Shown here one piece after another: positions 3,753-64,000 of a DNA stretch of 64,000 nucleotides. The notes beneath the pieces were generated by a model, which made no database searches, had not been told where the DNA came from, and saw only the letters and a list, made by a program, of their open reading frames with translations. Every line of letters starts with the position of its first letter. Within the stretch, counting starts at the first letter, position 1. Source of the stretch: Vicinamibacterales bacterium (GTDB taxonomy: Bacteria > Acidobacteriota > Vicinamibacteria > Vicinamibacterales > JAMQPK01); the NCBI GenBank assembly GCA_963832375.1, contig CAWHUA010000007.1, positions 37,069 to 101,068 of the forward strand, given 5' to 3'. The position numbers and the translations under genes are program-made.

Positions 3753-3787
3753 CCTTGTCTTCTTAACAGAAGGTCAGAAGAGTGTCT

Positions 3788-4033
3788 TTACCCCCCGGAA
3801 ACAGGCGGTAGAAACGCGACCTCGTCGCCATCGGCCACCATGGCCGTCATCCTGGAGTAATCGGCGTTCACCGCGGACGAAACGGACGACTCGTAGCGGG
3901 CCATCTCCGGAAATTCGGTCACCAGTCCCCGCCAGACGTCCGCAACGGTCGCGCCGGTCGGCACCTCTCGCGACAGATCGCCCGATCGGGCGATGTCGCG
4001 CAGCCGCGCAAAGAGCCGGACCGTTACGCGCAT
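3788..4033 (-). CDS. moaD: Molybdopterin synthase sulfur carrier subunit (MoaD/ThiS fold)
   Basis: 81 aa from ATG 4033 (MRVTVRLFARL...), ending in the diglycine LPPVSGG. The track ORF extends further 5' through moaE in another frame context. Confidence 0.75.
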   Translation of the reverse strand: MRVTVRLFARLRDIARSGDLSREVPTGATVADVWRGLVTEFPEMARYESSVSSAVNADYSRMTAMVADGDEVAFLPPVSGG

Positions 4034-13377: not shown

Positions 13378-13385
13378 TGGCGAAA

Positions 13386-13439
13386 AAGGGGTCGGGAGGG
13401 TTTTTCGGACCGATCTGCGAAAAACCCTCCCGACCCCTT
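13386..13439. repeat. REP-like palindrome, family GGGGTCGGGAGGG(G)TTTT; probable terminator between convergent genes
   Basis: Arms AAGGGGTCGGGAGGGTTTTT / AAAAACCCTCCCGACCCCTT. Confidence 0.8.
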
Positions 13440-15240: not shown

Positions 15241-15447
15241 CTAACCTTCTACGAGACGAACATCTCCGGCGCGAGGTCCCTTCTGAGATTCCTCAGGAGT
15301 GAACTCCACGCGCTGACCTTCGCGCAGCAACTCAAAAACCGCGCCGCGGACGGAGCTGCGATGGAAGAAGTGTTCGATTCCTCCCTCATCGCGGATGAAC
15401 CCGAATCCCTTGTCGATCAAGAGCCGTGCGATCGTGCCGGTCGGCAT
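15241..15447 (-). CDS. Cold-shock domain protein (paralog of 14272..14472)
   Basis: 68 aa: MPTGTIARLLIDKGFGFIRDEGG.EHFFHRS, closely parallel to the other csp product. Confidence 0.85.
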   Translation of the reverse strand: MPTGTIARLLIDKGFGFIRDEGGIEHFFHRSSVRGAVFELLREGQRVEFTPEESQKGPRAGDVRLVEG

Positions 15448-15569
15448 ACCCCTGTCCTCCGAATGTTCCCCACCGTTCGCGTGAAAGCCGCGTAACTTCT
15501 TTGAGATGCGGCCTTTGGGAGCCTCTCCGGTCGAGAACGGGGCCAGTGTAGGTGCTTCAACCTACGAAG

Positions 15570-16585: not shown

Positions 16586-16697
16586 TCGAGAAACCAACCG
16601 CAGTGTTCCGGTGGCACAGGGCTTCAGCCCTGTCGAGAAACCAAACCGTAGTGCTCCGGTGGCACAGGGCTTCAGCCCTGTCTAGAAACCAAACCGG
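16586..16697. repeat. Tandem 47/48-nt repeat (2.3 units) containing a hairpin
   Basis: Units are at 16586-16632 and 16633-16680, with a partial third unit at 16681-16697. Each starts TC[G/T]AGAAACCAA(A)CCG and contains GGCACAGGGCTTCAGCCCTG. The partial unit is the actual 3' end of the receptor gene (..IRFGF stop). Confidence 0.85.
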
Positions 16698-19817: not shown

Positions 19818-19893
19818 GGGCCAGTAGCGCAGTTGGGAGCGCGCATGAATGGCATTCATGAGGTCACCGGTTCGATCCCGGTCTGGTCCACCA
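19818..19893 (+). tRNA. tRNA-Ala (anticodon GGC), CCA encoded
   Basis: Hand-folded cloverleaf. Acceptor is GGGCCAG/CTGGTCC (one G-U pair), D arm GCGC..GCGC, anticodon stem CATGA/TCATG with loop ATGGCAT, and T arm ACCGG TTCGATC CCGGT. Confidence 0.9.
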
Positions 19894-21426
19894 ACCTTTC
19901 ATTTCCATCCTCGATCGTCCGCAAGTAGCTGAAGGCCGGTGCGGTTACGCGGGTTCCAACAAAGCCTTTTCCGTCGAACGCTATTCCGTCCGGAAAGAAG
20001 AGTTGTTGGAACCGCTGACGCTGTTCGAGTGACGCCTGCACCCAGAGGTCGCTGGCGCGCGGCAGAACGCGTTCTGCGAACGCCAGGATGCCCTCTACGT
20101 CGAGTTCATCGAGCTGGCCGGAGTGACGGTCGATCCGGGCGAGCGTGAGTTCCTCGCGTAGTTTTTCGGCGTGACGGTCGTAGGTCTCGATGTCGATCGA
20201 GCGCTCGAAGAGGAACGCCTCGTCCAGACGGTCCAGTTTGTCTTGAATGGCCTTCGCGGCTCGCTCGGCGTTCGCGATCTCCTCACGCACGGCTGCTTTC
20301 CGTGCCTTCCAGATCCGCAGCACGGATTCCTTCAGTAGGCGCATGTAGCCTGGCGTCGGCTGCAGCAGGGCGAGTTCGTCTGCGAACAGTCCTTCGAGCT
20401 TTGCCTTGGTCACGTTCACGGCCTGGCAACCAGGGCGGCAGTGGTAGTAGGCGTAGTACTCGCTGCGGCCCTTGGACCAGCTGCCGGTGAGGCCTCGACC
20501 ACAGGACTCGCAGCGCACGAAGGCGCGCAGTGGGAAGTCCGGGTGCGCCCGCTGCTGTGGCGTCGTGCTGGGCAGACGGCCGGACAGCACCGCCTGCACG
20601 CGGTAGAACAAGTCCTCTGAAATCAGTGGCTCGAAATCACCACGCTTCGCGCGGACGCCGTACTCGGGTACGTTCACGATGCCGGCGTAAAGCCGATTTC
20701 TCAGCAGCGTCCCAATCGCTTGGGACGTCAGCGGACGATTGCGGCGGTTCGTCAGGCCCCAGGCACGGGCCTGCTCGAGCACCTGCTGCTTGGTGAAACG
20801 CCCTGTTGCGTACTCCTCGAATACGCGGCGCACAATGGGCGCGCGTTCCGGGTCGAGCATCAGGCTCTTGCCAATCGCTCGCGGTGCATTCAGATAGCCG
20901 AGAGGCGCTAGGAACACCCACCGCCGAGCTCCAGCGCGGCCTTCATGCCGGCGCGGGTCCGGTCTGAGCGACAGTCGTTGTCGAACTGCGCGAACGCAGC
21001 GAGGACGCCTTCCATCAACTTGCTGGTGGAGGTGTCGTCGATCGGCTCCGTTGCCGACCGCAGCGAGATGCCCAGCGACTGCAGGTGAGAGCGGAGCGCG
21101 AAGTGGTCGTACTTGTCCCGCGCGAAGCGCGTCAGGTTGAACACGACGACGAAGTGCACGCGGCCCTTATTCAGGCGGCAGAAGGTGAGCAGGTTCTGAA
21201 GCTGGCTGCGATCCGTCGTCTTGGCGCTCTCGCCTTCCTCGTGGAAGCGATCGAGCACTTCGTACCCCTGGCGGCGGCAGTACTCCTCGCAGGCGCGCAA
21301 TTGCGTCGGCAGACTCAGATTCTCGGTCTGCTCCTTCGTGCTGACGCGAACGTAGATCACCGCGCCGACCATGGCTGGCAGCGTAGATCCATTCGCAGGC
21401 TCCGACAAGTGTCGTTTCCGAGGCAC
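19856..21426 (-). CDS. Large serine recombinase (integrase), 1-nt frame break near 20920; the 3' end reads into tRNA-Ala
   Basis: The N-terminal resolvase domain is VIYVRVSTKEQ (catalytic Ser) ...FARD. The recombinase/zinc-ribbon domain lies in the second ORF (RCESCGRG...YYHC) followed by a coiled coil. The junction ELGG/WVFLAPLGY needs one extra nucleotide. The last residues TGIEPVTS are antisense of the tRNA T-arm. Confidence 0.8.
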
Positions 21427-24378: not shown

Positions 24379-24700
24379 TCACGCCCAACTCTGTCCGACT
24401 TGGAGCGTCTCAACCCGTCTGAGCCATTTGTCGATCAGGTTCCAACTGGCGAAAATCTGGTCCACCAACTCCAAGTCGTTGATTCTACACGACTGAAATC
24501 GCCTACCCACGCCGTAGATCGAACCGCTGTGACCAGGTCGTGAGGCTGCTGAAGTGCGTCAACTGTGCAGCAGTCTTCGAGCCGTTGCGTTCCATACCGA
24601 GTTCGGACTTTTGAGCCCCGGCTGCACGTCTTCGAACGACGCCCTCGGATGCGCGTCGAACAAACCGCCGCCTTCAGCCTCTCGGCCACCTCACCGCGCG
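24379..24700 (-). pseudogene. Serine recombinase 3' relic (several frame breaks)
   Basis: The tail INDLELVDQIFASWNLIDKWLRRVETLQVGQSWA-stop is at 24379-24480. Upstream fragments in other frames (AERLKAA, SQRF) parallel AERAAKA and RQRFQQL of the full-length copy. Confidence 0.55.
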
Positions 24701-30000: not shown

Positions 30001-30321
30001 CAGAGCGACCAGGTCAATGATTACTTCGACACGACGGCCTTCGGCCTGCCGGCGCTCGGCACGTTCGGCACTGCCGGGAGAAATTCCCTTCGCGGTCCTG
30101 GCTACTCGAATACGGACATGACCATCCAGAAGCTGTTCCGGATGGCGGACGAGCGCGCCCTCGAGGTGCGGTTCGAGGTCTTCAACCTGTTCAATAATCC
30201 CAACTTCGCCAGTCCGAACAACCAGTTCTGTTCGAGAACCGTGGCCTCCTGCAATTTCGGCCGGCTCACCTCGGCCCGAGATCCTCGGATCATGCAGGTC
30301 GGCGCCCGATTCCGGTTCTAA
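27064..30321 (+). CDS. TonB-dependent receptor with N-terminal carboxypeptidase-regulatory-like domain
   Basis: 1085 aa from ATG 27064 (RBS AAGGAG). It has a signal peptide and the block VRGEVADSSGAALPGVSVTA..TNREGSYVLTGLRPGEY, then plug blocks (FSINGSRPNGSSYYLDG), and it ends in GARFRF. Confidence 0.85.
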   Translation: MRRDSLLVVLCCIGVWTLSTMVATAQIAATSTVRGEVADSSGAALPGVSVTATLVSTKGDYRTVTNREGSYVLTGLRPGEYIVTFELAGFSRLDRAGVRLEVNEQGRVDVVMQVGALSDAVTVVGNSSVVQTSNATLQTVVDSRRLVDLPLNGRQALQLQALTPGVVQVNEGQAASGIAVNTRLSFSINGSRPNGSSYYLDGGINMDMYNNLSTSFPNPDALQEFSVLANSYGANYGRSAGGVINMVTKSGANNFGGSAYYFRRDDALNAKNYFSLTKPELSRNQYGGTIGGPVLRNRTFFFTSYEGMREKNARTRSDIVVPTEAERRGDFSQSPLTSPVVDPATGTPFPGNQVPANRLDPVALRFATAFLPLPNGPGNTYIYNRLIPTTNDQFVVRVDHTLFEGNRLTARYFYDNFARENNAALLAFNSENRWRTKNFTVSDSHTFGSRVVNTATVTYAKNPFVRSPLSTPDAKDWAALGCVSCNPTSPPGEPTDWNVNIARGLNVRVDTAFQSYMTNLHVVDTLSWATADHLVSVGGEFGRFEREGHEYFSAAPTFAFDGLRSGSGWGYADFFLGVPRSVTQNSPLNSVTSRLNVAAYVQDDWKVADRLTVNLGLRYEPFLPIKEKDNKLSAFREGQQSTIYPLAPKGVLFPGDAGIGRGIVSSQQKVAPRVGVAYDPRGDGKASVRAAYGVFYDTIRLVALNTNNLNQPFTLGVTSFDPFSLTNPYLGKEATLALLQGYTSPSPGSEATRSFFLPVRANSIDPNFEPPLTHQWNVSVQRELPLQLTATIAYVGTRGRHLLVGQEINPAVYIPGASTAGNVDARRIHQGFQSIQNTQSTGRSDYDALQFSWNKRFSRGWSVLGSYVFSSSKDITSNDGNSGTGNSSSNPRDPEADYGPSDFDVPHRVVASFIWELPFFNSGNGAARALLGGWQVNGIVTMQSGTPFSPMAGQNRSLVGGGGDRADLIGNAQVFSDRSQSDQVNDYFDTTAFGLPALGTFGTAGRNSLRGPGYSNTDMTIQKLFRMADERALEVRFEVFNLFNNPNFASPNNQFCSRTVASCNFGRLTSARDPRIMQVGARFRF

Positions 30322-30344
30322 GAGCGTATGCTCGACGCGACGGC

Positions 30345-30626
30345 ATCGGGGCCGCGAGCTGTTCTATCTCGACGCGTCGAATGTGCTCACCGCTGTGCCG
30401 GTCAGCACATCCGAACCGACGATCAGCATCGGCAGTCCGGCGAAGGTGTTCGACACCAAATATGCTGAGCCAAATCCCTCGCCGCCATTACGACGTGTCG
30501 GCCGACGGCCAGCGATTCCTCGTGCTCAAAGCCAGCGCAACCGGCGATCCGAACGCGACGCCAGTCAGCATGGTCCTCGTCGAGCACTGGTTTGAGGAGT
30601 TGAAGCAGCGTGTGAATGGAAAGTGA
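30345..30626 (+). pseudogene. 3' fragment of a TolB-like beta-propeller (kinase-family C-terminus), frameshifted
   Basis: GRELFYLDASNVLTAVPVS...KVFDTKYAEPNPS is followed, in another frame, by RHYDVSADGQRFLVLKASATGDPNATPVSMVLVEHWFEELKQRV. This parallels the ends of the kinase paralogs (YDVSADGQRFLMMK...VVQNWLAELRRLV). Confidence 0.7.
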
Positions 30627-30649: not shown

Positions 30650-31228
30650 TCATTGGAGCCCATCGATCTGCCGTAGCCAAGACGCGATCCGGTTCCAACT
30701 CGCGAACATCTGGTCCACCAACCTCCGCTCGCCCTTCGGGCAAGCTTCGGATGGCAAGCCAAGCGAGCTTTCCAGTAAGCGAAGGATATCCACCATAGCG
30801 GCGAAGCCGCGAAGGCGGACCGTTGGCAAGCCAACCGTCGCCACAGCCAGCCGGACGTGACTCCCAAGTGCATCGTCTACGTTCTAAAGAGTGAGAAGGA
30901 TCCGCGCCGCTACTACGCTGGGCTGACGTCGAATCTAGGTGACGAGGTCAAGGTGCGCATTCCGGTGGAGCCACCTCCGCAGGATTCGCACGGGCGAAGG
31001 CGCGCAAACGCCGCACTCCGGCACGTCCACGATCCCGAAGTAGAGCTGATTGCGCAGCATCACCCCAATCGCTTGCGACGTAAGCGGACGATGCCGGCGG
31101 TCGTCAGGCCCCACGCGTGTGCCTGATCGAGCACTTGTTGCTTGGTGAACGCCCCCGGTGGCGTACTCCTCGAATACGCGGCGCAGAAGCGGGGCCAGAC
31201 CCGCTACAATCTGCCTCGTCAGTAACCG
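30650..31228 (-). pseudogene. Serine recombinase relic (tail + core + decayed body)
   Basis: The tail ERRLVDQMFASWNRIASWLRQIDGLQ-stop is at 30650-30733. At 30950-31200, RRVFEEYATG...RPLTSQAIGVMLRNQLYFGIVDVPE matches RRVFEEYATG...RPLTSQAIGTLLRNRLYAGIVNVPE of the full-length copy. The resolvase domain is absent. Confidence 0.7.
30857..30934 (+). pseudogene. GIY-YIG nuclease N-terminal fragment
   Basis: KCIVYVLKSEKDPRRYYAGLTSNL matches the GIY...YIG N-terminal motif. The frame then runs antisense into recombinase relic sequence. Confidence 0.45.
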
Positions 31229-33967
31229 ATGGCTCTTTTCCCGGGGACGCGCCTCGGCCCATACGAGATTCTCTCCGCCCTCGGCGCCGGCGGGATGGGC
31301 GAGGTGTACCGAGCGCACGATACGTCGCTTGGGCGCGACGTCGCGATCAAGATCCTTCCCGACACCTTCGCGCACGATCCTGAGCGACTGGCCCGCTTCG
31401 AGCGCGAGGCCAAGACCCTCGCTGCGCTAAACCATCCCAACATCGGGCATATCTACGGTCTGGAGGCATCCGACGGGACCAAGGCGCTGGTGCTTGAGCT
31501 GGTCGAAGGACCGACACTCGCGGATCGGATTGCGCAGGGTCCGGTCCCGCTCGACGAGGCGCTGCCCATCGCGCGCCAGATCGCCGAGGCTCTCGAAGCC
31601 GCGCACGAACAAGGCATCATCCACCGCGACCTGAAGCCGGCCAACGTGAAAGTGCGCGACGACGGCACGGTGAAGGTGCTGGACTTCGGCCTCGCGAAGG
31701 CGCTCAGCGGAGACGGGAGCGGATCCGTCGCAACACCGCTATCGCACTCGCCCACGATCACGAACCTGGCTGGGATGACTGGCGTTGGCGTTTTGCTCGG
31801 CACGGCGGCGTACATGTCGCCTGAACAAGCAAAGGGCAGACAGGCGGACAAACGCAGCGACGTCTGGGCGTTCGGCTGCGTGCTCTACGAGACGCTGACC
31901 TGCAGGCGCGCGTTCGAAGGCGAGGATATCAGCGACACGCTTGCGGCGGTGCTGCGCGGGGAGCCGGATTGGACGGCGCTGCCCGCCGACGTCCCGCGTT
32001 CCATCCGTACGCTGCTCACGGGATGTCTCGCCAAAGACCGGCGACACCGCATCGCAGATCTGTCGACGGCGCTCTTCGCGATCGATCATCACGCGGATCT
32101 GTCGGCGTCCACTCCTGCAGTTCCGCTTGCGCCGCATGTTCCAGTCTGGCGCAAGGTGATGCTTGTCGCCATTCTGATTTTCGTCGCGATGGCCGCTGCC
32201 TATGGCGGCTGGAGGCTGAAGCGCGTGGCTCCGCCCGCGGTCGCGCGCTTCGAGATCGCGCTGGGCGCCGGTGACACGCTGACTGGTCCGTTCGCGTGGT
32301 CCCCGGACGGCACACGACTGGCCTATTCAGTCAACGACCGTCTCTATTTGCGCTCATTCGATCAACTCAACGCGACGCAAGTCGCGGGCGGCGATAGTCC
32401 TTCCCTCGCGAGCCCGAGATCGCCGTTTTTCTCACCCGACGGGCAGTGGCTCGGGTTCTGGGAAGCGGGACAACTGAAGAAAGTGTCAGTCAGCGGTGGT
32501 GCGCCGGTCACGCTGTGTACCGTACGTCCGCCGCCGTCCGGCGTGACGTGGGCCGACGACAACACGATCTTTTTCGGACACGGCGTCGGGGGAATCTGGC
32601 GGGTGTCCGGAAATGGCGGAACGCCTGAACGCATCATCGCGCTCGAGGCAGGCCAGCGTGCTCATCGGCCGCAGCTGTTGCCCGACGGCCGAACAGTGTT
32701 ATTCACGCTTGCGGCGACCGCGAATTGGGATGAGGCGCAGATTGTCGTCCAATCACTCGACAATGGAACGCGGCAGACACTCGTCGCTGGAGGCACCGAG
32801 GGCCGCTATCTGACCACGGGGCATCTCGTCTATGCGTTCGGCAACAGCCTGCTGGCGGTGCCGTTCGATGCGGCTTCCCGCTCTGTCAGCGGAGGACCGG
32901 TGCCGGTGATCGAAGGCCTGCTGCGATCGGGCCCGTACGCGTTCTTTGCGGTGCCCTCGCGTGCGGCGACGCTGGCGTACTTGCCTGCTGCAAGCCGCAC
33001 ACAGGCGCGCCGGACGCTCGTGTGGGTCGATCGCGGCGGGCGCGAAGAGACCATCCCGGCGGAGCCGCAATCGTACGTGCATCCGCGACTCTCACCAGAC
33101 GGGACACGACTCGCGCTGACCTTTCCGGACGAGAAACAGAACGTGGACATCAGGGTCTGGGAGTTTGCAACCCGAACGTGGACACGTGTCACTTCTGAAC
33201 CCGCCAACGACGGCGAGCCTGTGTGGACGCCGGACGGGCAGCGACTCATATTCACTTCGCTCCGCACTGGCGTCATTGGTCTGTTTCGCCAGGCGGCGAA
33301 CGGAACCGGCACAGCCGAACAGTTGATCGATCTCAATCGGCAAAACTCCCCGCAGCCCGCGATATCGCCGGATGGCAGACAGGTCCTTTTGCGCGACTCG
33401 GAATCGGGCAGCTCCTACGTGTTGATCGCGGACCTGGAGCCTGTGCAGCGCGGGGGCCAGACGTCTTCAAGTGGCGAGGGTAAGCCGAGGCCACTCGTGA
33501 AGACGGAGTTCGAAGAGTACAACGCCGAGATCTCGTCCGATAGCCGATGGCTGGCGTACCAGTCGAACAGGTCCGGTGCCTTCGAGGTGTACGTGCAGCC
33601 GTTTCCGGATGTGGAGAATGGTCGCTGGACCGTTTCCACGGCCGGCGGCGCCGAGCCGCTCTGGTCGCGCGACGGCCGCGAGCTCTTCTATCGCGCTCCC
33701 AGCGGCGCCGTGATGAGCGTTTCAATTGCTCCGGGATCGACGTGGAAAGCGAGCGCGCCGACACAGCTCTTCATAGCGACGTCGTACGCGCTCAGCGGGA
33801 GCGGCGACCTCAGAGGCCTGTCGCGTACATACGATGTTTCTCCTGACGGCAAGCGATTTCTCATGCTCAAAAACGCCGATGCGCCGGCCCAGACCTCCGT
33901 CGCCCCGCGGATCGTCATCGTGCAGAACTGGCATGAAGAGCTGAGGCGGCTGGTGCCGGTGAACTGA
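31229..33967 (+). CDS. Ser/Thr protein kinase - TM - TolB-like (PD40) beta-propeller, paralog K1 (intact)
   Basis: 912 aa with [23 protein letters not shown] and SPEQ. It has one TM segment (VMLVAILIFVAMAAAYGGW), then repeated xSPDG blocks (FSPDGQWLGF, LSPDGTRLAL, WTPDGQRLIF). Confidence 0.9.
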   Translation: MALFPGTRLGPYEILSALGAGGMGEVYRAHDTSLGRDVAIKILPDTFAHDPERLARFEREAKTLAALNHPNIGHIYGLEASDGTKALVLELVEGPTLADRIAQGPVPLDEALPIARQIAEALEAAHEQGIIHRDLKPANVKVRDDGTVKVLDFGLAKALSGDGSGSVATPLSHSPTITNLAGMTGVGVLLGTAAYMSPEQAKGRQADKRSDVWAFGCVLYETLTCRRAFEGEDISDTLAAVLRGEPDWTALPADVPRSIRTLLTGCLAKDRRHRIADLSTALFAIDHHADLSASTPAVPLAPHVPVWRKVMLVAILIFVAMAAAYGGWRLKRVAPPAVARFEIALGAGDTLTGPFAWSPDGTRLAYSVNDRLYLRSFDQLNATQVAGGDSPSLASPRSPFFSPDGQWLGFWEAGQLKKVSVSGGAPVTLCTVRPPPSGVTWADDNTIFFGHGVGGIWRVSGNGGTPERIIALEAGQRAHRPQLLPDGRTVLFTLAATANWDEAQIVVQSLDNGTRQTLVAGGTEGRYLTTGHLVYAFGNSLLAVPFDAASRSVSGGPVPVIEGLLRSGPYAFFAVPSRAATLAYLPAASRTQARRTLVWVDRGGREETIPAEPQSYVHPRLSPDGTRLALTFPDEKQNVDIRVWEFATRTWTRVTSEPANDGEPVWTPDGQRLIFTSLRTGVIGLFRQAANGTGTAEQLIDLNRQNSPQPAISPDGRQVLLRDSESGSSYVLIADLEPVQRGGQTSSSGEGKPRPLVKTEFEEYNAEISSDSRWLAYQSNRSGAFEVYVQPFPDVENGRWTVSTAGGAEPLWSRDGRELFYRAPSGAVMSVSIAPGSTWKASAPTQLFIATSYALSGSGDLRGLSRTYDVSPDGKRFLMLKNADAPAQTSVAPRIVIVQNWHEELRRLVPVN

Positions 33968-36667
33968 TGACGCTGATTCCGGGTACGCGCCTCGGCCCGT
34001 ACGAGATTGTCGCCGCTCTCGGCGCCGGCGGGATGGGTGAGGTGTACCGCGCCCGCGACACGAAACTCGATCGCGCGGTCGCGATCAAGATCCTCCCCGA
34101 ATCCTTCGCGCACGATCCGGAGCGGCTCGCCCGCTTCGAGCGGGAAGCGAAGACGCTCGCCGCGCTGAATCACCCCAACATCGGCGGCATCCACGGCCTT
34201 GAAGAATGCGAGCGGCGTGCACCGCCCTCGTGATGGAGTTGGTCGAGGGCGAGGATCTGGCGCAGCGCATCGCGCGAGGCGCGATCCCGCTCGACGAGGC
34301 GCTCGCCCATCGCGCGGCAGATCGCGGACGCGTTCGAGGCCGCGCACGAGCAAGGGATTATCCACCGCGATCTCAAGCCAGCCAACGTCAAGGTGCGGCC
34401 CGATGGCACGGTGAAGGTGCTGGATTTCGGCCTGGCCAAGTCGCTGGAGCCGGCTGGCGTCGTCGTCGAGCGTCTCGCAGTCACCGACGATCACGACGCC
34501 CGCGATGACTCAGGTAGGGTCATTCTGGGCACCGCCGCCTACATGGCCCCGGAGCAGGCGAAGGGAAAGCCGGCGGACAAACGCAGCGACATCTGGGCGT
34601 TCGGCTGCGTGCTCTACGAGATGCTGACCGGCGCGCGCGCCTTTGCCGGCGAGGATGTCAGCGACACGCTGGCGGCCGTGCTGCGGGGTGAGCCCGATTG
34701 GCGCTCGTTGCCGGCCGAGACACCCGCGTCGATTCGGCGATTGCTGCGGCGCTGTCTCGAGAAGGATCGGAAGCGCCGGCTCTCGGATCTCGCCGATGCG
34801 CGGCTGGAGATCGAGGACGCCTTGACGCCGCCGGCGTCCGACACACCGCCGATGCCAACAGCCGGTACGCGCGAACGCATGGCGGCGCGCGGCAATGATT
34901 GCTGCCGCCGCTCTTGTCGTCGGCGGCGCGGCGCGGGCATCGCCGTCTGGATCGCGATCCGCCCTGCTCCGGCGCGGATGGTGCGAACGTCGATCCAGAC
35001 GTCGGGCGCAACGGCGCTCGTGACGAACCCGGGAGCGGCAGGCAGTCTCGCCATCACGCCCGACGGCTCACGGATCGTGTACACCGCGGCCGGCCAGCTC
35101 GTCGTGCGTCGCCTGGATCAATTCGAGCCGGACGCGCTCACTGGTCTGGGCTCGCCCACGCAACCGTTCATCTCCCCCGACGGTCAGTGGGTGGGATTTT
35201 TCGACGGGATGGTTCTCAAGAAGGTGGCGATTACCGGCGGGCCGCCGGTGACGGTGGTCCAGGACAATACCCCCAGCGGCGGGCCCTTGGGCGCCACCTG
35301 GAGTGCCGATGGCACGATCGTGTACGCAGGGGCCATCGGTGGTGGATTGAGACGGGTCGCGGCCGCGGGCGGTCAGGCCGAAACGCTGACGACGCCCGAC
35401 CGAGCGCAAGGTGAGGTCAGACACGTCTGACCCGAGTTTCTGCCGGACGGGCGGGCGTTGCTCTTCACGATTTTTTACGCGATTCCGGGGCCCGAGGGCG
35501 CCCGGATTGCGCTGTTGGACTTGGCGACCGGCGCAACGATCGTGCTGCTCACTGGGACCCACGCGCGGTATCTGCCATCGGGCCACCTTGTGTATGGAAC
35601 GGAGGGCACGCTCCGCGCGGTCGCGTTCGACCTCGAGCGGCGGGCCGTGGTCGGAGCCCCAGTGCCGCGTTCTCGCCCCGGTAGCCAGGCACCAGAGCCA
35701 GGCACGTATGAGTACGACGTAGCCGACAATGGGACGATCGTGTACCTGGCGGAGAACATCGCGTCGCCGGCCACACGCACGCTGGTGTGGGTCGATCGGC
35801 AAGGCGGTGAGACGCCGCTCGGCGCCGAGGCCCAGCCTTACGTCCACCCCCGGCTGGCGCCCGACGGCACGCGCGTGGCCGTCCTCAATGCCGGAAATAT
35901 CTGGATCTGGGATCTCGCGCGCGCGAGGCTGACCGCCGGAACGCTCGACGGTGGCGACCATTTCGATCTGGACACCCGACAGTGCGCGTCTCATCTTCAG
36001 CTCGATCCGCGGCGGCGGCGGCGCGAATCTCTACCTGCAGGCGGCCGACGGCACCGGGACGGTCACGCGGCTGACCGACAGCCCGAATACCCAGCACCCG
36101 ACCGGCTTCACATCTGATGGCACGCAGGTCGTCCTCAACGAATCGACGCCCACCCAGCAGGGAGACATCCGGCTGCTGACGCTGACCCCGACGCCGCAGG
36201 TGACGCCGCTCGTCGAGACGCGCTTCGACGAGCGGGGCGGCGTCGTGTCCCCGAACGGCCGCTGGCTGGCGTACGAGTCCAACAGGTCAGGTGCGTACGA
36301 AATCTACGTGCAGCCCTTTCCCGTCGTGGATGGCGGTCTGTGGCCGGTCTCGACCGCCGGCGGATCGCAACCGCTCTGGGCGCGGAGCGGGCAGGAACTG
36401 TTCTATGTGGCGCCCGACGACGCGTTGATGACGGTGGCGGTGGAGGCGCGGGGATCAGTCTGGTCGGCCGCCGCGCCGGCCCGACTGCTCGAGGGACGGT
36501 ACTTCAGCGGTGGGCGGGGGACCACGGTGCGCCAGTATGATGTCAGCGCGGACGGGCAGCGATTCCTGATGATGAAGGAAGAAGCGAGAGACAACGACGC
36601 GGCTCCGACGATCAACGTCGTGCAGAACTGGCTAGCGGAGCTGAGGCGGCTGGTGCCGGTGAACTGA
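33967..36667 (+). pseudogene. Kinase-propeller paralog K2, multiply disrupted
   Basis: It has the same architecture as K1. Frame breaks lie near 34222, 34306, about 34450, 34517 and 35961, and there is an in-frame TGA at 35428-35430 (GEVRHV-stop-PEFLPDG). It shares start/stop overlaps with K1 and K3. Confidence 0.75.
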
Positions 36668-39351
36668 TGATGCTGATGCCGGGTACGCGCCTCGGCCCGT
36701 ACGAGATCGTCGCGGCTCTCGGCGCCGGCGGGATGGGCGAGGTCTATCGCGCGCGCGATCCGCGGCTCGGACGCGACGTGGCGGTCAAGGTTCTCCCGCC
36801 TGCTTTTTCAGCCGATCCTGAACGCCTCACGCGGTTCGAACAGGAAGCTCGAGCGGCCGCGGCGCTGAACCACCCCAACATCCTCGCCGTCTACGACGTC
36901 GGCCAGCATGACGGCTCGCCCTACATCGTCTCGGAACTGCTCGAGGGGGAGACACTTCGGGAGCGACTCGCCGCTGGGGCGCTCCCTGTGCGTAAAGCGC
37001 TGGAGTACGCCGTCCAGATCGCGCAGGGCCTCGCGGCAGCTCATGAGAAGGGGATCGTCCATCGGGATCTGAAACCCGAGAATGTCGTTGTCACTGGCGA
37101 TGGGCGCGTGAAGATTCTCGACTTCGGGCTTGCCAAGCTGACGCAGGCCGAGCCAGTAGAGGCGGGGATTAGCGCTCTGCCGACGACGCCCCCGCACACG
37201 CAGGCCGGCATCGTGCTCGGCACGTTCGGGTACATGTCGCCGGAGCAAGTGCGTGGACTTGTGGCAGACCATCGCGCGGACATCTTCGCGCTTGGTACGC
37301 TGCTTTACGAGATGTTGTCGGGCCAGCGGGCGTTTCGAGGCGACACCGCAGCCGATTCGATGACGGCGATCCTCAAGGAGGACCCGCCCGACCTCCCGGT
37401 CGCAGAGCGGCGGATCCCGCCCGCGCTCGATCGCATCGTGAATCGATGCCTGGAAAAAAATCCCGCGAACCGCTTCCAGACGGCTGTCGATCTGACGTTC
37501 GCCATCGAAGGGATTTCGTCGCAGTCTGATGCGTTTCGGGCGCGCGACGGACGATTCAGCGGCCGCCCGGCCAGGCGCGAGCTCGCCGCGTGGTCGGGCG
37601 TCGCGATCGTGTCGGTGTTCGCCGCGGCACTCGGCTGGAATGCGCTCGACCGCGCGACTCCGGACGCCGAGCGCTCCGTGCACGCGACCTTGTTGCCGCC
37701 CGAAAACTGGACTCTGACCGGTACCAACCCTGCGGCACGGTTGGCCGTGTCGCCCGACGGCTTGCGCCTGGCCTTCGTGGCCAACGGGCCGGACCGGCGA
37801 TCAATGCTATGGGTCCGGCGTTTCGATTCGCTCGCGCCACAGCCCCTGCAGGGCACCGAGGGCGCGACGAGCCCGTTCTGGTCGCCCGACAGCCGGTTTC
37901 TGGGCTTCTTCGCGTCCGGCAAGCTCAAAAGGATCGACGCGTCGGGCGGGCCGGCCGTGACCTTGTGCGATGCACCCTATACGAGAGGGGGCGCAGTTCC
38001 GGGCGGAGCGTGGAATCGGGACGGCGTCATTCTCTTCGGCAGTTCTGGTGCAAGTCTTCAACATGTGTCCGCTTCCGGTGGAATACCGGCAAGAGTAACG
38101 ACTCTTCAAGGTCAGGAGACCAGTCATCAGCTGCCGTTCTTCCTGCCGGATGGCCAACACTTTCTCTTTCAGGTCGCGATCGGGAGCAGCGCCAGCGCGG
38201 GAGCGGTGGGGTCCGAGATCCGAATCGGGTCTCTGGACTCCCCCGAGGTCCGCCCGCTGATGAAGGGTACTTCCCAGGCGATGTACGCGGGTCACCTGCT
38301 CTTCGTGCGCGACCAGACGCTCATGGTCCAGGCGTTTGATGCCCAGCGTCTCGAGCTCTCTGACGAGCCTGTCCCGCTGGCCGAACAGATTGTGAGCAGT
38401 CCGAGCGGGGGCAGCACCTTTTCAGTGTCGCAGAACGGGGTCCTCGTCTACCAGGCCGGGCCTTCGGCACTTTCTCCCTCCAGGCTCGTCTGGATCGATC
38501 GCGAGGGGAAAGAGGTCGCCACGCTCGGTGACGTAGCCGCCTACGGCGACGTTCAGCTGTCCTCGGATGGCAGGCGGGCGGCGGTGAGCCTGCTTCAGGC
38601 TGAGAGCAACACGCGTGACGTGTGGATCTTCGATCTGGCGCGTGGGGTTCCGGCGCGATTCACGTTCGACGCCGCCAACGATCTGGCCGCCATCTGGTCA
38701 CCTGGCGATGATCGTGTGGTCTTCAGCTCAGCCCGCGCAGGGCGTCTGGACCTCTACGAGAAGGCGTCGACGATGGTGGGCGATGAAACGATCCTTCTGG
38801 CCGACAGCGCAGACAAGTATCCCCTGAGTTGGTCTCGCGACGGACGCTTCATCCTGTACTCCGTCATTGAAGGTCGGAACCAGGATCTTTGGGCGCTGCC
38901 TCTCTTCGGAGATAGGAAGCCATTTCCTTTTGCGCGGTCGACATTCTCCGAGACCGCGGGGCAGTTCTCCCCCAATGGAAAGTGGATCGCGTACCGCTCC
39001 GACGAGTCGGGACGGCCCGAAATCTGGGCCGGGCCGTTTCCGGGACCAGGAAGGCGAACGCAGATCTCGACCGAGGGAGCGGGAGCCGGATATCCACGAT
39101 GGGACCGCGACGGCAAGGAGCTCTACTATCTGGATGCCGCTTCCAGGCTGATGGCTGTTCAGGTGAGCGCCGATGGCTCAGAACTTCAGATCGGTACTAT
39201 CCGACCACTCTTCGAAACCCGAGCATCGTTTCGACTCCGCTCTTCGTACGACATCTCCCCCGACGGGCAGCGCTTCCTGATCAATAGCAACGTTGGCGAG
39301 GCGGCGCCAATTACGCTGGTGGTCAACTGGGCGGCCATGTTGAAGAAATGA
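36667..39351 (+). CDS. Ser/Thr protein kinase - TM - beta-propeller, paralog K3 (intact)
   Basis: 894 aa with kinase motifs ([27 protein letters not shown]), a TM segment (WSGVAIVSVFAAALGW) and PD40-like blocks. Confidence 0.9.
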   Translation: MMLMPGTRLGPYEIVAALGAGGMGEVYRARDPRLGRDVAVKVLPPAFSADPERLTRFEQEARAAAALNHPNILAVYDVGQHDGSPYIVSELLEGETLRERLAAGALPVRKALEYAVQIAQGLAAAHEKGIVHRDLKPENVVVTGDGRVKILDFGLAKLTQAEPVEAGISALPTTPPHTQAGIVLGTFGYMSPEQVRGLVADHRADIFALGTLLYEMLSGQRAFRGDTAADSMTAILKEDPPDLPVAERRIPPALDRIVNRCLEKNPANRFQTAVDLTFAIEGISSQSDAFRARDGRFSGRPARRELAAWSGVAIVSVFAAALGWNALDRATPDAERSVHATLLPPENWTLTGTNPAARLAVSPDGLRLAFVANGPDRRSMLWVRRFDSLAPQPLQGTEGATSPFWSPDSRFLGFFASGKLKRIDASGGPAVTLCDAPYTRGGAVPGGAWNRDGVILFGSSGASLQHVSASGGIPARVTTLQGQETSHQLPFFLPDGQHFLFQVAIGSSASAGAVGSEIRIGSLDSPEVRPLMKGTSQAMYAGHLLFVRDQTLMVQAFDAQRLELSDEPVPLAEQIVSSPSGGSTFSVSQNGVLVYQAGPSALSPSRLVWIDREGKEVATLGDVAAYGDVQLSSDGRRAAVSLLQAESNTRDVWIFDLARGVPARFTFDAANDLAAIWSPGDDRVVFSSARAGRLDLYEKASTMVGDETILLADSADKYPLSWSRDGRFILYSVIEGRNQDLWALPLFGDRKPFPFARSTFSETAGQFSPNGKWIAYRSDESGRPEIWAGPFPGPGRRTQISTEGAGAGYPRWDRDGKELYYLDAASRLMAVQVSADGSELQIGTIRPLFETRASFRLRSSYDISPDGQRFLINSNVGEAAPITLVVNWAAMLKK

Positions 39352-39397
39352 CACGTGCAGGCCAGGTAAGGCGGGTAGGTCAAGTAGGTCGAAGCCG

Positions 39398-39857
39398 ATG
39401 TCGCTGACAATGGGAACTCGCCTCGGGCCGTACCGGAATCGTCAGCGCCATTGGCGCCGGCGGGATGGGCGAGGTGTACCGCGCGAGCAAGATCCTGACC
39501 GATACCTTCGCGCACGAGACTGGACGAAGCGAGTTTTACCTGGCGCCGTTTCAGCGGCACGGCGCAAAGGTGCCGATTTCGAGCGCAGGTGGCGGGTCAC
39601 CGAGATGGCGGCAGGACAACAACCAGATCTTCTATCTTGATGAGAACACGCTGATGGTTGCTGCGGTCCGTGGCGGCGACTCGGAGATCGACGTCGGCGA
39701 CGCCCGGCTCCTGTTCCAGACGCGAATGAGCAACAGATCCTTTTCTTATGCGGTGACGGAAAACGGTCAGCGCTTCTTGATGAACAAGCCGTCGGAAGAG
39801 ACCTCACCGAAACGCATCACGCTCGTCGTGAACTGGCCCGCGATGTTAAAGGAATGA
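39398..39857 (+). pseudogene. Internally deleted kinase-propeller remnant
   Basis: The first ~30 codons of a kinase ([25 protein letters not shown], frame break near 39437) are joined to the last propeller blade ([13 protein letters not shown]...[13 protein letters not shown]...[13 protein letters not shown]). Confidence 0.75.
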
Positions 39858-42623
39858 GCCTCACAGCCGGCGCCAGGCTCGGTCCGTACGAAGTCTTGGG
39901 CCCTCTCGGCGCAGGGGGCATGGGCGAAGTCTACCGGGCGCGCGACACGAGGCTTGATCGCCGCGTGGCCATCAAGGTCCTGCCGTCGGCCCTGGCCGCC
40001 GACCCGCAGTTGCGCGACCGCTTCGAACGCGAGGCGCGCGCGATCTCGTCGCTCAATCATCCGCACATCTGCACACTGTTCGACGTCGGACATCAGAGAC
40101 GGCGTCGACTTCCTCGTGCTGGAGTATCTCGAAGGGGAGACAGTCGCCGAACGCCTGGCCCATCGCGGCGCGCTGGATCCGAACGAGGCTCTGAAGATCG
40201 CCATCGACATCTGCGACGCGCTCGACAAGGCGCACCGCTCGGGCATCGTCCATCGCGATCTCAAGCCTGCGAACGTCATGCTGACCAAGGCGGGCGCGAA
40301 ACTGCTCGACTTCGGCCTCGCGAAAAAGGCCGCGCCGGCCGTCGCGACGACGGCGTCGTCGATGTTGCCGACCACGCCGCCGAACCTGACGGCGCAGGGC
40401 ACCATCCTCGGGACCTTTCAGTACATGGCGCCCGAACAGGTCGAAGGGCTCGAAGCGGACGCGCGCACCGACATCTTCGCGTTTGGTGCGGTCCTCTTCG
40501 AAATGCTCACCGGCAAGAAAGCGTTCGAGGGGAGAAGCCAGGCGAGCCTGATTGCCGCCATTCTCAAGCACGAGCCACCTTCGATTGTGAGTGTGCAACC
40601 GCTCACCCCGCTGGCGCTGGATCGCGTCGTCAGGAAATGTCTCGCCAAGGACCCTGATGCGCGCTGGCAGAGCGCGAGAGATCTCGAAGACGAACTGAAG
40701 TGGATTGCGGAAGCGCCTTCGGAGACGCGAGCGTCGGCGCCTTCGAGTCCTCGCCGACTGGCTCCCGCGCGCTCGGCGTTGATAGTGGCCGGACTGCTGA
40801 TTGCCGCTGTCGCCGTTGCTCTCGGCCTGTGGCGCGTGACGCGTGCGCAAACGGCCTCGCCGGTCGCGCGCTTCCTTATCAGCGTGACGCCCGCCGACCG
40901 GTTATCGAGCATCAGCCCGGACGAGCGCAGGTTCATCCCTCATCGTCCGAGCCGAACGGCCATGGCCTGGTCGCCCGACGGGCAGCGGCTTGTTTTCAGC
41001 GCCATTCGCGGCGATAAGCAGTAACTGTACATGCGCGCGATTGATCGGCTCGAGGCCGAGCCGATAGCCGGTACTGAAGACAGCGACAGCCCCTTCTTTT
41101 CGTCAGACGGCCAGTGGGTCGGCTTCTGGAAGGGTGGGGAGTTGAAGAAGGTGCCCGCTGGCGGCGGGCCCGCGGTCACGATTTGCGAAACTGCTCCAGT
41201 CTCCGGCGCGAGCTGGGGATCGAACAACCTCGTGGTGTTTGCACGCGGAGGAGGAGGGCTGTGGCAAGTGTCGGGCGACGGGGGCACGCCACAACCGTTG
41301 ACAACTCTCGATGCAAATAACGGAGAAAGGAACCACGTCTTACCGCACGTTCTGCCGGGTGGCAAGGCCGTGCTTTTCACCATTCGGAAGGCCGCAGGAA
41401 CTCGCCCGACGGCCTGGGACGATGCGCAGATCGTGGTGCGGTCTCTGGTGAGCGGCGACCAAACGACTCTCATTGAGGGAGGCGCCGACGCTCGCTACGT
41501 GTCCACGGGACACCTGGTCTATGTACGGCAGGGAACGTTGATGGCGGTGCCGTTCGACCTCGACCGCCTCGCGCTTACGGGCGCTGCGGTCGGGATCGTG
41601 AACAGCGTGATGCAGGCGGTCAATACGCCGAGCGGCGCCATCGAAACTGGTGCGGCGCAGTTCAGCGTCTCTGCTTCAGGGACGCTCGTCTACGTCTCAG
41701 GAGGTATGTTCCCGGAAGGCGAGCGATCGCTGATCTGGGTGGACAGGGCGGGCGTGATCCAGTTGCTTCCCGCCCCGCCAAAACCGTACTTAGGGCCGCG
41801 GTTATCACCGGACGGACAGCGAGTCGCGGTCTTTACACAGGGGAGGGACGCAGAGGTCTGGATATACGATCTCGTTCGCGAAGACTTAACAATGTTCACG
41901 ACCACCCGGCCCAGGCGAGGTACCCGCCCGGTGTGGACGCCAGATGGGAAGCGGTTGACATTTGGCGCTGGGAATCTGTTGTGGAAACCCGCAGATGGAT
42001 CGGGTGTAGCGGAGCCGCTGACCACGAGTGAGGATGTTCAACTGCCTGAATCCTGGTCACCTGATGGAAAGACATTGGCGTTCTTTCAGGGCGGAACACT
42101 CGGCCGGGGAGACATCTGGATGCTTTCCCTCGCGGATTCTGATCGGACGGCGCGGCCCTTTGTGCAGACAGCGGCCAACGAGCGATGGCCGGACTTCTCG
42201 CCGGACGGCCGCTGGCTCGCCTACGCTTCGGACGAATCGGGTCGCGACGAGGTCTATGTGCAGCCGTATCCCGGTCCTGGAAGCCGACACCAGATCTCAG
42301 CGCGAGGCGGGACCCAGCCGGTCTGGGCGCGGAATGGTCGAGAGTTGTTCTATACCGTTCCGGATTCCACAGCGACGGTTGACTTCAGCAGAATGATGGT
42401 GGTGGACGTCACGACGGCTCCGACCTTCACCGCCGGAATCCCGAAGCCGCTGGAGAGCGTCGTCCGTCTCACCAATCCCATCAGAGGCTATGACGTCACC
42501 GCCGATGGCAAGCGGTTCATCACCGTTCGTGACAACGAACGATCGCCCGAACCTCCGCCGGCCCACATGATCGTCGTCCAAAATTGGCTAGAGGAGCTGA
42601 AACTCCTCGTGCCGACGAAATAA
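39854..42623 (+). pseudogene. Kinase-propeller paralog K4, frame break at 40097 and in-frame TAA at 41022-41024 (possibly a functional split)
   Basis: The kinase reads ...DVGHQ then, in the next frame, [11 protein letters not shown]...HRDLKPANV. After the TM segment the ORF ends GDKQ-TAA. An ATG 6 nt later (41031) opens the 530-aa propeller ORF. Confidence 0.7.
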
Positions 42624-42738
42624 GATGGCACTATTCGACCAGCTGCCTGTGAGACCTCGACCGGAACAGACTGCCTGGTCCGGTATCTGGAGGCTTGCAA
42701 TGAGACGCGCGCGACGTAACGCGAGACGCACGGGCTTG

Positions 42739-42779: not shown

Positions 42780-43013
42780 ATGGCGAAGCCTCATTCCATC
42801 CATGCCGCCAAGACCCAGCTCTCGCGCCTGGTCGAACGCGCGGAACGCGGCGAGGAAGTCGTCATCGCGCGTGGATCGACACCCGTCGTGCGTTTGACCC
42901 GCCTGCGGGTAGAACGGCCCGCCCGCCGTTTCGGCGCCATCCGCGGCCGCGTCCGCGTCACGCGGGCCTTCTTCGAGCCGCTCCCAGAATCCGAGATCAA
43001 GCGCTGGGAGTAG
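42780..43013 (+). CDS. Type II antitoxin (Phd/YefM-like, PIN-associated)
   Basis: 77 aa. AKTQLSRLVERAERGEEVVIARGSTPVVRL is the typical N-terminal antitoxin pattern. It lies directly upstream of the PIN toxin. Confidence 0.75.
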   Translation: MAKPHSIHAAKTQLSRLVERAERGEEVVIARGSTPVVRLTRLRVERPARRFGAIRGRVRVTRAFFEPLPESEIKRWE

Positions 43014-43016
43014 TCG

Positions 43017-43403
43017 GTGCGACTGCTGCTGGACACTCTTGCACTTCTCTGGTGGCTGGATGACGACCGCCGGTTGTCACTGAAGGCACGCCGTGCGATA
43101 GCCAATCAGTCGAACACGATCCTCGTCAGCGCCGCCTCCGCGTGGGAGATCGCCACAAAGGCGCGCCTCGGCAAGCTGCCCGGTGCGACAGATGTGGCGG
43201 CGGACGTTGCGGCGTGCGTCGCTGGCCAGGGTTTTCTGCCGCTCGACATCACGATGCTCCACGCACAGAAGGCGGGCCGACTGCCTGGCGAACACAGAGA
43301 CCCGTTCGACCGAATGCTCATCGCGCAGAGCCAGATGGAGGACATCGCGCTCCTCAGCGACGACGAGGCTTTCGACAACTTCGACGTCCGCCGATTCTGG
43401 TAG
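43017..43403 (+). CDS. vapC: PIN-domain toxin
   Basis: 128 aa with acidic PIN residues in LLLDT, SAASAWEI, DPFDRMLIAQS and LLSDD. The start is GTG. Confidence 0.8.
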   Translation: MRLLLDTLALLWWLDDDRRLSLKARRAIANQSNTILVSAASAWEIATKARLGKLPGATDVAADVAACVAGQGFLPLDITMLHAQKAGRLPGEHRDPFDRMLIAQSQMEDIALLSDDEAFDNFDVRRFW

Positions 43404-43404
43404 C

Positions 43405-43746
43405 TCACTCGACCGGCCCAGTCTCCTGCCGCAGGGCTTCCAGGCAGCGCATCCACCGGTGGATCCGGTTCCAACTCGCGAACATCTGGTCCACCAACCT
43501 CCGCTCATGATCCAGGCGGAGGTTGCCCACCATAGCGCCGACCTGTCCGCCGAAGCGCAACGCGCGAAGGTGGAAGGCGCGACGGTGGGCCCCCTCCTTG
43601 ATGAACGAGCTACGGTTGGCAGGCCAACCTTCGCCCTGTTTGAAGGCGAAGGTTCGTGCCACAAACAACAGGCGAAGTTCCACACGCGAAGGGTGTCCAC
43701 ACAGCGCCCCGAACGAAGGCGAGGTGAGCCAATACATGTCGCGCAT
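43405..43746 (-). pseudogene. Serine recombinase 3' relic
   Basis: 113-aa ORF ending ERRLVDQMFASWNRIHRWMRCLEALRQETGPVE. The upstream part weakly parallels the recombinase C-terminal region (LLFVARTFA vs ILAFAERVL; RRAFHLRALRFGG vs RQRFQQLFFPDGIAFDG). Confidence 0.55.
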
Positions 43747-47215: not shown

Positions 47216-47408
47216 GTTCGTTAAGTTCGTTAAGTTCGTCGGGTTCGTGGGTTCGTCAGGTTCGTGAGGTTCGAGCGCGCTCCGCATTCGTCGCGCGCCG
47301 TGAAACTCGGGCCGTACGAACCCCGAACCGCACGAACCGCGCGAACCCCGCGAACCGCACGAACCGCACGAACCCACGAACCCGACGAACCCCACGTTCG
47401 TGAACCGT
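47207..47408. repeat. Inverted arrays of 9-bp-periodic repeats (GTTCGTNNN)x8 ... (NNNACGAAC)x~9
   Basis: The left array is at 47207-47277 (GTTCGTTAA x3, GTTCGTCGG, GTTCGTGG, GTTCGTCAG, GTTCGTGAG, GTTCGAGCG). The right array is at about 47314-47408 with CGAACC units. It lies between convergent genes and overlaps both stop codons. Confidence 0.85.
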
Positions 47409-55282: not shown

Positions 55283-55372
55283 GAGCGTTTTCAGCGGTAC
55301 GTAGTGTCCGTTCAGGCGGACCGTGAGGGTCCGGCTGAAGCCGGACACTGACGTACTACACGAAGCGTGATT
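55283..55372. repeat. REP-like nested palindrome, family GTACGTAGTGTCCG...CGGACACTGACGTAC
   Basis: GTACGTAGTGTCCG (55297-55310) pairs with CGGACACTGACGTAC (55342-55356), and an inner CGGACC/GGTCCG pair is present. It lies between convergent genes. Confidence 0.8.
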
Positions 55373-57160: not shown

Positions 57161-57240
57161 TGTCCGGCTTTAGACGGACTTCACGAGGTCCGCCTAAAGG
57201 CGGACACTGACGTACTATCGAAGATTCGGTGGAAACGCTC
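57150..57240. repeat. REP-like nested palindrome, same family as 55283-55372
   Basis: AGTACGTAGTGTCCGGCTTTAGACGGAC...GTCCGCCTAAAGGCGGACACTGACGTACT. It overlaps the 3' ends of both convergent ORFs. Confidence 0.8.
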
Positions 57241-63922: not shown

Positions 63923-63938
63923 CTGGCTGCCGTTCGGG

Positions 63939-63995
63939 GAGGGGTCGGGAGGGGTTTTCCCAGGCGACGCAGGGGAAAACCCCTCCCGACCCCTC
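63939..63995. repeat. REP-like palindrome, family GGGGTCGGGAGGGGTTTTC
   Basis: Arms GAGGGGTCGGGAGGGGTTTTCC / GGAAAACCCCTCCCGACCCCTC, directly after the addB-like stop. Confidence 0.85.
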
Positions 63996-64000
63996 GCGGA

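Follow-up and report, generated by a model that had tools for sequence, protein, structure and literature searches.

Signs of short-tract gene conversion in a decaying tandem array of old receptor kinase genes from a Vicinamibacterales bacterium

The present study examined a stretch of 64,000 nucleotides (nt) from a Vicinamibacterales bacterium of the phylum Acidobacteriota (contig CAWHUA010000007.1, positions 37,069 to 101,068), hereafter called the window. Positions 31229-42623 of the window carry five co-directional genes of one design, in which a Hanks Ser/Thr kinase is joined by a single transmembrane helix to a propeller of the TolB/Tricorn-like kind. This locus is most likely a birth-and-death tandem array of old receptor kinases in which short-tract gene conversion has acted, located on a decayed island. 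It clearly illustrates an evolutionary process that is already known and presents no new mechanism or type of system. Members of the Acidobacteriota rank among the most abundant bacteria of soils and possess very many receptor Ser/Thr kinases. The locus provides a concrete, statistically supported case of how such a repertoire changes: old paralogs in tandem swap short patches as well as larger kinase segments, lose internal parts, and decay, all within an island at a tRNA gene.

The open reading frame (ORF) map, translations, and tblastn searches with K1 and K3 revealed six homologous pieces in the window, all on the plus strand. An earlier reading of the same DNA, made from its letters and ORFs without database searches (the sequence-only reading), had listed five copies and an orphan; all of these and their coordinates check out, and K2 is more decayed than was seen there. 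The pieces, and the tracts on which the argument rests, are as follows.

30345-30626, plus strand: orphan fragment from the 3' end of a sixth member of the family, upstream of K1
31229-33967, plus strand: K1, intact ORF of 912 amino acids (aa)
33967-36667, plus strand: K2, pseudogene, read from a frameshift-aware alignment
36667-39351, plus strand: K3, intact receptor kinase of 894 aa (ORF and Pfam)
39398-39857, plus strand: remnant with an internal deletion, K1/K2-like kinase 5' end fused to K3-like propeller 3' end
39854-42623, plus strand: K4, pseudogene, frameshifted by an additional nucleotide at 40097 and interrupted by a TAA stop at 41022-41024
33917-34062, plus strand: junction tract copy A (K1 3' end, TGATG overlap, K2 5' end)
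36617-36762, plus strand: junction tract copy B (K2 3' end, TGATG overlap, K3 5' end)
31844-31909 in K1 and 34573-34638 in K2, plus strand: second tract, in the kinase C-lobe, encoding ADKRSDVWAFGCVLYE
33967-34700, plus strand: K2 5' segment, codons 1 to about 212-243, with a putative separate history; the 3' limit is approximate

Consecutive genes overlap by their stop and start codons (TGATG at 33965 and 36665; ATGA at 39854). A 33-nt block (33938-33970) and a 29-nt block (33979-34007) recur perfectly 2700 nt downstream. The overlap coordinates, the perfect blocks, and the spacing had all been given exactly by the sequence-only reading; the spacing equals the length of K2 and signifies nothing more. 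Junction tract copies A and B, which extend beyond these blocks, are identical at 131 of 146 nt. Their flanks are diverged, with 64% identity in the next 146 nt and 53% in the preceding 50 aligned codons.

Synonymous sites were compared after frameshifts had been corrected and the genes aligned by codon, and only codons for the same amino acid in both genes were counted. The array was compared with itself shifted by one gene, that is, K1 with K2 and then K2 with K3. Whole-gene synonymous codon identity was 0.39-0.51 in every pair, which is a saturated background. At the junction, 31 of 33 synonymous codons were identical. This top-scoring segment begins in the final codons of K1/K2, crosses the stop/start, and ends 22 alignment columns into K2/K3; its score was not equalled in any of 20,000 permutations (p <= 5e-5). 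The junction-limited excess identity claimed earlier is, therefore, real at synonymous sites. Codon bias was considered as the cause of the perfect blocks and rejected because the N-terminal peptide of K4 is almost unchanged, yet its codons show a synonymous identity of 0.36-0.43, which is that of the background.

The junction may alternatively have been kept by selection on its nucleotides, acting on a coupling or ribosome-binding element or on mRNA structure, rather than copied. Within the family, genes often overlap by stop and start codons (at 6 of the 12 tandem junctions that are intact), the tract lies exactly on the overlap, and GGTG is located 8-11 nt upstream of the ATG. However, the third overlapping junction, between the remnant and K4, is unrelated in sequence to the K1/K2 and K2/K3 junctions, and overlapping junctions across genomes share no common nucleotide motif beyond that expected from the protein motif; both results speak against an element conserved for its function. 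In other arrays, the gene ends mostly have a synonymous identity near the background. Similar end-limited spikes do recur in other genomes (31/31 in L068 and 25/27 in L050) and count in favour of conversion. Furthermore, a tract of 146 nt far exceeds the needs of a ribosome-binding site, and K2, which is served by one of the two copies, is dead. We consider selection on the nucleotides to be an unlikely cause of the tract.

Copying between paralogs is also suggested by two other regions. The second tract is identical at 61 of 66 nt between flanks of 47% and 67% identity, and all 17 of its synonymous codons match (permutation p = 0.002-0.003). Moreover, K1 and K2 are identical over their final 33 nt, a stretch in which both carry a derived AGG codon, whereas these positions differ in the closest homologs of K2 (L082 and L085; 76-78% aa identity) and in those of K1 (L001 and L086). 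Judged from these alignments, a 3' end shared by K1 and K2 and divergent in external homologs is the signature of within-genome conversion. At the 5' end of K3, support for conversion is limited to synonymous identity with K2. An exact-protein look-up with K1 and an exact-match scan of metagenome contigs for the 33-nt junction both yielded no match.

The copies themselves are old. Array members are 36-53% identical to each other at the protein level, whereas full-length external homologs reach 74% identity for K1, 78% for K2, and 59% for K3 (closest range, 55-59%); the closest relatives in the genome-contig search were only about 50% identical. The closest homologs of K1 are single genes in other contexts, and those of K2 are found in arrays with other neighbours and non-overlapping junctions. 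On this evidence from sequence comparison, K1, K2, and K3 are old, separately conserved subfamilies. The array was not recently duplicated since external homologs are closer than neighbours and synonymous sites are saturated, and it is not a concertedly evolving set; old, separately conserved paralogs are what the sequence-only reading had named as evidence against its own interpretation. The evidence for local conversion holds despite the age of the copies because K1 and K2 share the last 33 nt and external homologs do not.

A recent tandem duplication followed by fast divergence of the interior, particularly the propeller, under diversifying selection would also leave similar gene ends, and the propeller halves of K1 and K2 are far more diverged than their kinase halves (45% and 70% aa identity, respectively). 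Nevertheless, the saturation of synonymous sites in the gene interiors, the far closer full-length homologs elsewhere, the occurrence of close K1 homologs as single genes, and the different neighbours of K2 homologs stand against it; saturation and the closer external homologs rule it out as far as we can judge, and we regard it as extremely improbable.

Besides patches, the array shows mosaicism, which we assessed from segment-wise identities and bootstrapped distances. When K2 was compared with either of its closest homologs, a change-point was detected at codon ~212-243, with a synonymous identity of 0.55 to its left and 0.78 to its right (p <= 0.001 by permutation), whereas a comparison between the two homologs themselves gave no change-point. 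The N-lobe of K2 grouped apart from the homologs of its propeller in 172 of 200 bootstraps. These patterns indicate that the first two-thirds of the K2 kinase domain came from another paralog. K1 was rejected as the donor because the K1-K2 synonymous identity in this segment is only about 0.56. In two homologs, P0005 and P0006, the kinase C-lobe (residues 216-290) is of the K2 type and the propeller is of the K1 type, each with 200 of 200 bootstraps. The check proposed in the sequence-only reading, a search for mosaicism between the kinase and propeller, was thus borne out: the two halves differ in history. That reading had also proposed that recombination at the junctions reshuffles the propellers. 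Homogenised junctions and mosaicism are both real; however, the re-pairing exchanges broke within the kinase domain, around codons 120-240 and 290, and not at the gene ends. A crossover at a junction would move whole genes and, therefore, would not re-pair kinases with propellers.

Since kinase and sensor halves may differ in history, care is warranted in the construction of trees, the definition of orthologs, and the prediction of specificity. A bolder proposal is that the conserved stretches serve as recurrent recombination joints, through which arrays re-pair kinases with sensors and move cassettes, that this is the main source of new combinations in Acidobacteriota, and that K2 and K4 are reservoirs. 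We regard this proposal as possible but doubtful. If it were true, recombination rather than point mutation would be the main origin of new sensor-kinase combinations in this phylum.

Decay affects most of the pieces. Relative to an intact homolog with 78% identity, K2 carries ten single-nucleotide indels (34207, 34223, 34305, 34459, 34511, 34876, 34931, 35668, 35705, and 35956) and an in-frame TGA at 35428. The single-nucleotide indels are directly visible when the DNA of K2 is aligned with its homologs from L082 and L085, and a frameshift-aware alignment with the homolog P0121 gave 81% identity. The raw reading frame of K2 ends at a stop at 34231. The remnant consists of ~130 nt of a kinase 5' end and ~340 nt of a K3-like 3' end; by tblastn, it matches residues 14-59 of K1 at 54% identity and residues 780-894 of K3 at 45% identity (E 8e-21), and it retains the ATGA overlap with K4. 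Homology of the orphan spans 30242-30614 in two frames (tblastn E 1e-5 to 3e-7). The decay had been described as graded; it is not, because the order along the array is intact, dead, intact, remnant, dead. A scan for promoters and terminators revealed no excess over the shuffled expectation.

The indels of K2 cluster in local compensation, with three +1 changes inside a stretch of 98 nt and three +1/-1 pairs whose members are separated by 37-55 nt. The out-of-frame share of the indel span is only 14% (random placement, p about 5e-4). We considered selection on an open frame for translational coupling as the cause of this compensation; it is not supported because the raw frame already stops at 34231.

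This odd pattern is one reason to consider an assembly artefact, in which spurious junctions and frameshifts would have arisen because the metagenome assembler fused paralogs, or collapsed them, where their ends are conserved. The source is a metagenome-assembled genome (MAG), and K1 and K3 are on one contig of 168,149 bp (NCBI/ENA). However, the longest exact repeats, 33 and 29 nt, are shorter than the usual k-mers, and the two copies of the tract have mismatches at 15 of their 146 positions. K1, K3, and an adjacent gene of 1150 aa are free of frameshifts; furthermore, K2 and K4 also contain in-frame stop substitutions, and the K2 indels are outside homopolymer runs. An artefact of this type is, in our opinion, highly unlikely.

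Under the preferred reading of gene conversion in an old array, events at the locus may be envisioned as follows. The co-directional, overlapping genes would be co-transcribed and translationally coupled. The five units would derive from different old subfamilies and not from recent duplication. Stretches of nearly identical DNA shared by the units, namely, the 5' end encoding the glycine loop, part of the kinase C-lobe, and the 3' end that codes for the C-terminal helix, would allow misaligned or neighbouring copies to recombine repeatedly. RecA-dependent gene conversion requires only a few tens of bp of identity. Four traces of this recombination may be recognised: a ~146-nt patch copied between the K1/K2 and K2/K3 junctions, a ~66-nt patch common to K1 and K2 in the kinase C-lobe, the replacement of the first ~215-240 codons of K2 with the sequence of another paralog, and the internal-deletion remnant. 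Copies without selection, K2, K4, the remnant, and the orphan, would then decay. The array as a whole may be carried as cargo in the repeat-bounded distal part of a composite island, which a large serine recombinase would have assembled at the tRNA-Ala 3' end.

Several points weigh against this explanation, in addition to selection on the junction nucleotides as discussed above. The tract copies are ~10% diverged, which indicates that the event was old or patchy, and they are compatible with transfer in either direction. The donor of the K2 5' segment is absent from the window. Evidence comes from one assembly, a MAG contig. Co-transcription, coupling, kinase activity, and ligand binding are inferred, and the mobility of the unit is putative.

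The process resembles gene conversion in bacterial multigene families (PMC6053082), including a PE_PGRS pair (PMC1762029), in its short tracts, paralogs that are closer than orthologs, diverged flanks, and accompanying deletions and chimeras. It differs from these cases in that the paralogs of the array are very old (36-53% aa identity) and the patches are ~66-146 nt at conserved motifs, one of them across a junction. No sign of a programmed variation system was found in the array. The Ser/Thr kinases of Ca. Solibacter usitatus have been described as a large, old paralog family, mostly with <50% identity and under purifying selection (PMC3174227), and the array genes likewise come from a large kinase family, generally with <50% identity; the propeller architecture, tandem arrays, junction overlaps, and conversion tracts are not described in the available part of that study.

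The label given to the encoded proteins by the sequence-only reading, Ser/Thr kinase, transmembrane helix, and TolB-like propeller, proved correct with Pfam, an AlphaFold model, and Foldseek. Pfam identified the kinase domain and PD40 in K1 and K3, and PD40 in the propeller-half ORF of K4. PF00069 scored 162 bits against a cutoff of 31.7 in K1 and K3 alike, and the E-values for K1 were 1.8e-47 (Pkinase) and 4.8e-29 (PD40). The AlphaFold2 model of K1, based on an alignment of 44 homologs, had a mean predicted local distance difference test score (pLDDT) of 84, and comprises a kinase (residues 1-292), a transmembrane helix (307-330), an all-beta ectodomain (339-899), and a short C-terminal helix (901-908), which bears the conserved motif NWxEELRRLVP. 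The corresponding motif of K3 differs (LVVNWAAMLKK). Kinase motifs are present in K1 (GxGxxG, the VAIK lysine, HRDLKPxN, DFG, and SPEQ as an APE-like motif) and have equivalents in K3, and the catalytic residues are invariant across the 44-sequence alignment.

The best Foldseek matches of the kinase fold were PknA and PknB of Mycobacterium tuberculosis and Stk1 of Staphylococcus aureus (E 1e-19 to 1e-16), with a TM-score to the target of 0.85-0.90 for PknA/PknB. The K1 ectodomain matched TolB chains by sequence at E 1e-16 to 1e-12, the best match (1.5e-16) covering part of the ectodomain. Its ~560 residues of PD40/TolB- and Tricorn-like repeats may form one propeller or two. Tricorn_N and Tricorn_2nd domains are recorded for the kinase-propeller family. 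Likeness to TolB and the Tricorn protease thus comprises PD40 repeats, matches to TolB chains, and the Tricorn domains; in contrast to TolB, the array proteins lack its N-terminal domain and Tol-Pal context, and their propeller is fused to a kinase via a transmembrane helix and ends in a family-specific C-terminal helix. K1 and K3 each encode a cytoplasmic PknB-like kinase with a periplasmic ectodomain, which would bind a ligand and activate the kinase. The general layout is that of M. tuberculosis PknD (PMC1847690), with an N-terminal cytoplasmic kinase, a single transmembrane helix, and an extracellular propeller sensor. However, PknD has a six-bladed NHL propeller, whereas that of the array is of the PD40/TolB/Tricorn type with ~560 residues, and the array kinase family is hugely expanded and often arranged in arrays. 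No curated equivalog was reached in NCBIfam; against the PknD equivalog NF009651, the scores were 126-158 bits (cutoff, 839) and involved the kinase domain only. An anti-phage defence kinase (PD-T4-6 or MADS6 in PADLOC) was also considered and dismissed because matches were confined to residues ~4-300, the generic kinase domain. The genes neighbouring the array match no PADLOC defence model.

The ectodomain family is large, with 18,849 cluster-50 representatives at E <= 1e-30. Many matches in the search of representatives were 550-760 aa, below the size of a full-length kinase; the N-terminal module was checked only in L085, in which the gene at 2120-4324 has the same ectodomain type fused to a winged-helix DNA-binding domain (Trans_reg_C) without a kinase.

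The array belongs to a larger structure, the features of which are listed below.

19818-19893, plus strand: tRNA-Ala(GGC), the island anchor
20908-21426 and 19856-20917, minus strand: large serine recombinase, split by one frameshift, the frame of which runs into the tRNA 3' end
24456-24469, plus strand: internal attachment-site (att)-like core copy, with diverged recombinase-tail coding sequence at its left
30686-30730, plus strand: left copy of a 45-nt perfect direct repeat, containing TCTGGTCCACCAAC
30961-31195, minus strand: serine recombinase relic, residues 26-145, with a frameshift and internal deletions
42636-42668, minus strand: recombinase zinc-ribbon fragment of 29 nt (GRGLTGSWS), 12 nt past the K4 stop
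42780-43013 and 43017-43403, plus strand: PhdYefM antitoxin and PIN toxin, at the right end of the repeat-bounded unit
43462-43506, plus strand: right copy of the 45-nt perfect direct repeat, followed by a hairpin

The tRNA was the sole Rfam match. The 14-nt core TCTGGTCCACCAAC corresponds to the tRNA-Ala 3' end and occurs four times in the 64 kb, with repeats at 24456, 30709, and 43485, and upstream of each recurring core is a coding-like recombinase tail, LVDQ[MI]FASWN..W[LM]R. The repeated motif LVDQMFASWNRI was initially a candidate for an extracytoplasmic function (ECF) sigma factor or PadR; it proved instead to be the end of the serine-recombinase reading frame, joined to the 3' end of tRNA-Ala. 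The recombinase contains a Resolvase-like N-terminus, Recombinase, and Zn_ribbon_recom domains and is similar to CcrB and XisF. The relic at 30961-31195 is 58% identical to the recombinase at 19856-20917 (tblastn E 5e-17). The pair of 45-nt repeats encloses this relic, the whole kinase array, the Phd/PIN pair, and the 29-nt recombinase fragment. The PIN domain was identified at 3.1e-14; PhdYeFM_antitox, at 1.5e-6 and 28.3 bits, is just below the gathering cutoff of 29.8.

These 45-nt repeats, the tRNA-Ala 3' end, and the relic support the earlier suggestion of a mobile unit behind a recombinase relic and make such a unit plausible. The composite island looks like the result of successive integrations at one tRNA (19818-43506). 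Insertion of the array into a single recombinase gene was rejected since the recombinase pieces on its two sides overlap in protein coverage, in the zinc-ribbon region; these flanking fragments may be the scar left by a deletion between two elements in tandem. The island resembles those of CcrB and XisF in the recombinase domains and in an attachment site with flanking direct repeats. It differs in that the core is inside the 3' coding end of the recombinase, which is also the tRNA 3' end, and in that its recombinases are frameshifted or relics; its mobility is putative.

A hairpin (43499-43524, CCTCCGC...GCGGAGG) directly follows the last att-like core. It is kept with compensatory changes (CCTTCGC...GCGAAGG) in unrelated metagenome contigs, at the positions below.

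L088, about 13300-13385, minus strand: hairpin
L087, 527-600: hairpin

The same order of tail, core, and hairpin was found in these two contigs, with no recombinase within reach. The hairpin is probably the native terminator downstream of tRNA-Ala, and its conservation as such a tRNA-flanking element suggests that it marks the true right end of the island.

Tandem arrays of this type are common in Acidobacteriota. A scan of species-representative genomes identified at least 595 related stretches, mostly in this phylum; of 48 loci that span 15 kb or more and come from different species, 20 have two or more same-strand copies and 13 have three or more. Broken copies and remnants of kinase 5' ends also occur in L001 and L082. 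An ORF of 52 aa at 12749-12907 of L082 is a kinase 5' end alone, between two full genes, and L050 has near-identical (50/54) upstream junction segments resembling kinase 5' fragments at about 12700-12760 and 15410-15465. There is no general association between recombinases and these arrays: in 86 loci (1.4 Mb), the sole recombinase match was weak (L004; 29% identity, E 3e-9). Toxin-antitoxin genes (PemK, PIN/DUF6364, ParD, and Phd antitoxins) repeatedly adjoin these kinase genes in different metagenomes, as follows.

L001, 5853-6194 and 9294-9937: toxin-antitoxin neighbours
Contig of P0003: toxin-antitoxin neighbours
Window, 42780-43403: toxin-antitoxin neighbours

The window also contains other repeats. 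G+C-rich palindromic repeats similar to the repetitive extragenic palindromic type, with the motif GGGGTCGGGAGGGGTTTTC and its complement, are located at 1335-1456, at 9390-9436 together with 13381-13427, and at 63934-64000. A 48-nt unit is present twice in tandem at 16591-16686, between convergent ORFs; its copies are 90% identical and each contains a small hairpin (CACAGGGCTTCAGCCCTGT). An inverted repeat at 47234-47390 has 40-nt arms that are 93% complementary and 77 nt apart, with runs of GGTTCGT-like heptamers. A 31-nt repeat (90% identity), consisting of a hairpin (GGTCCGGCTGAAGCCGGAC) followed by ACTGACGTACTA, occurs in intergenic regions at 55328-55358 and 57187-57217, 1.9 kb apart.

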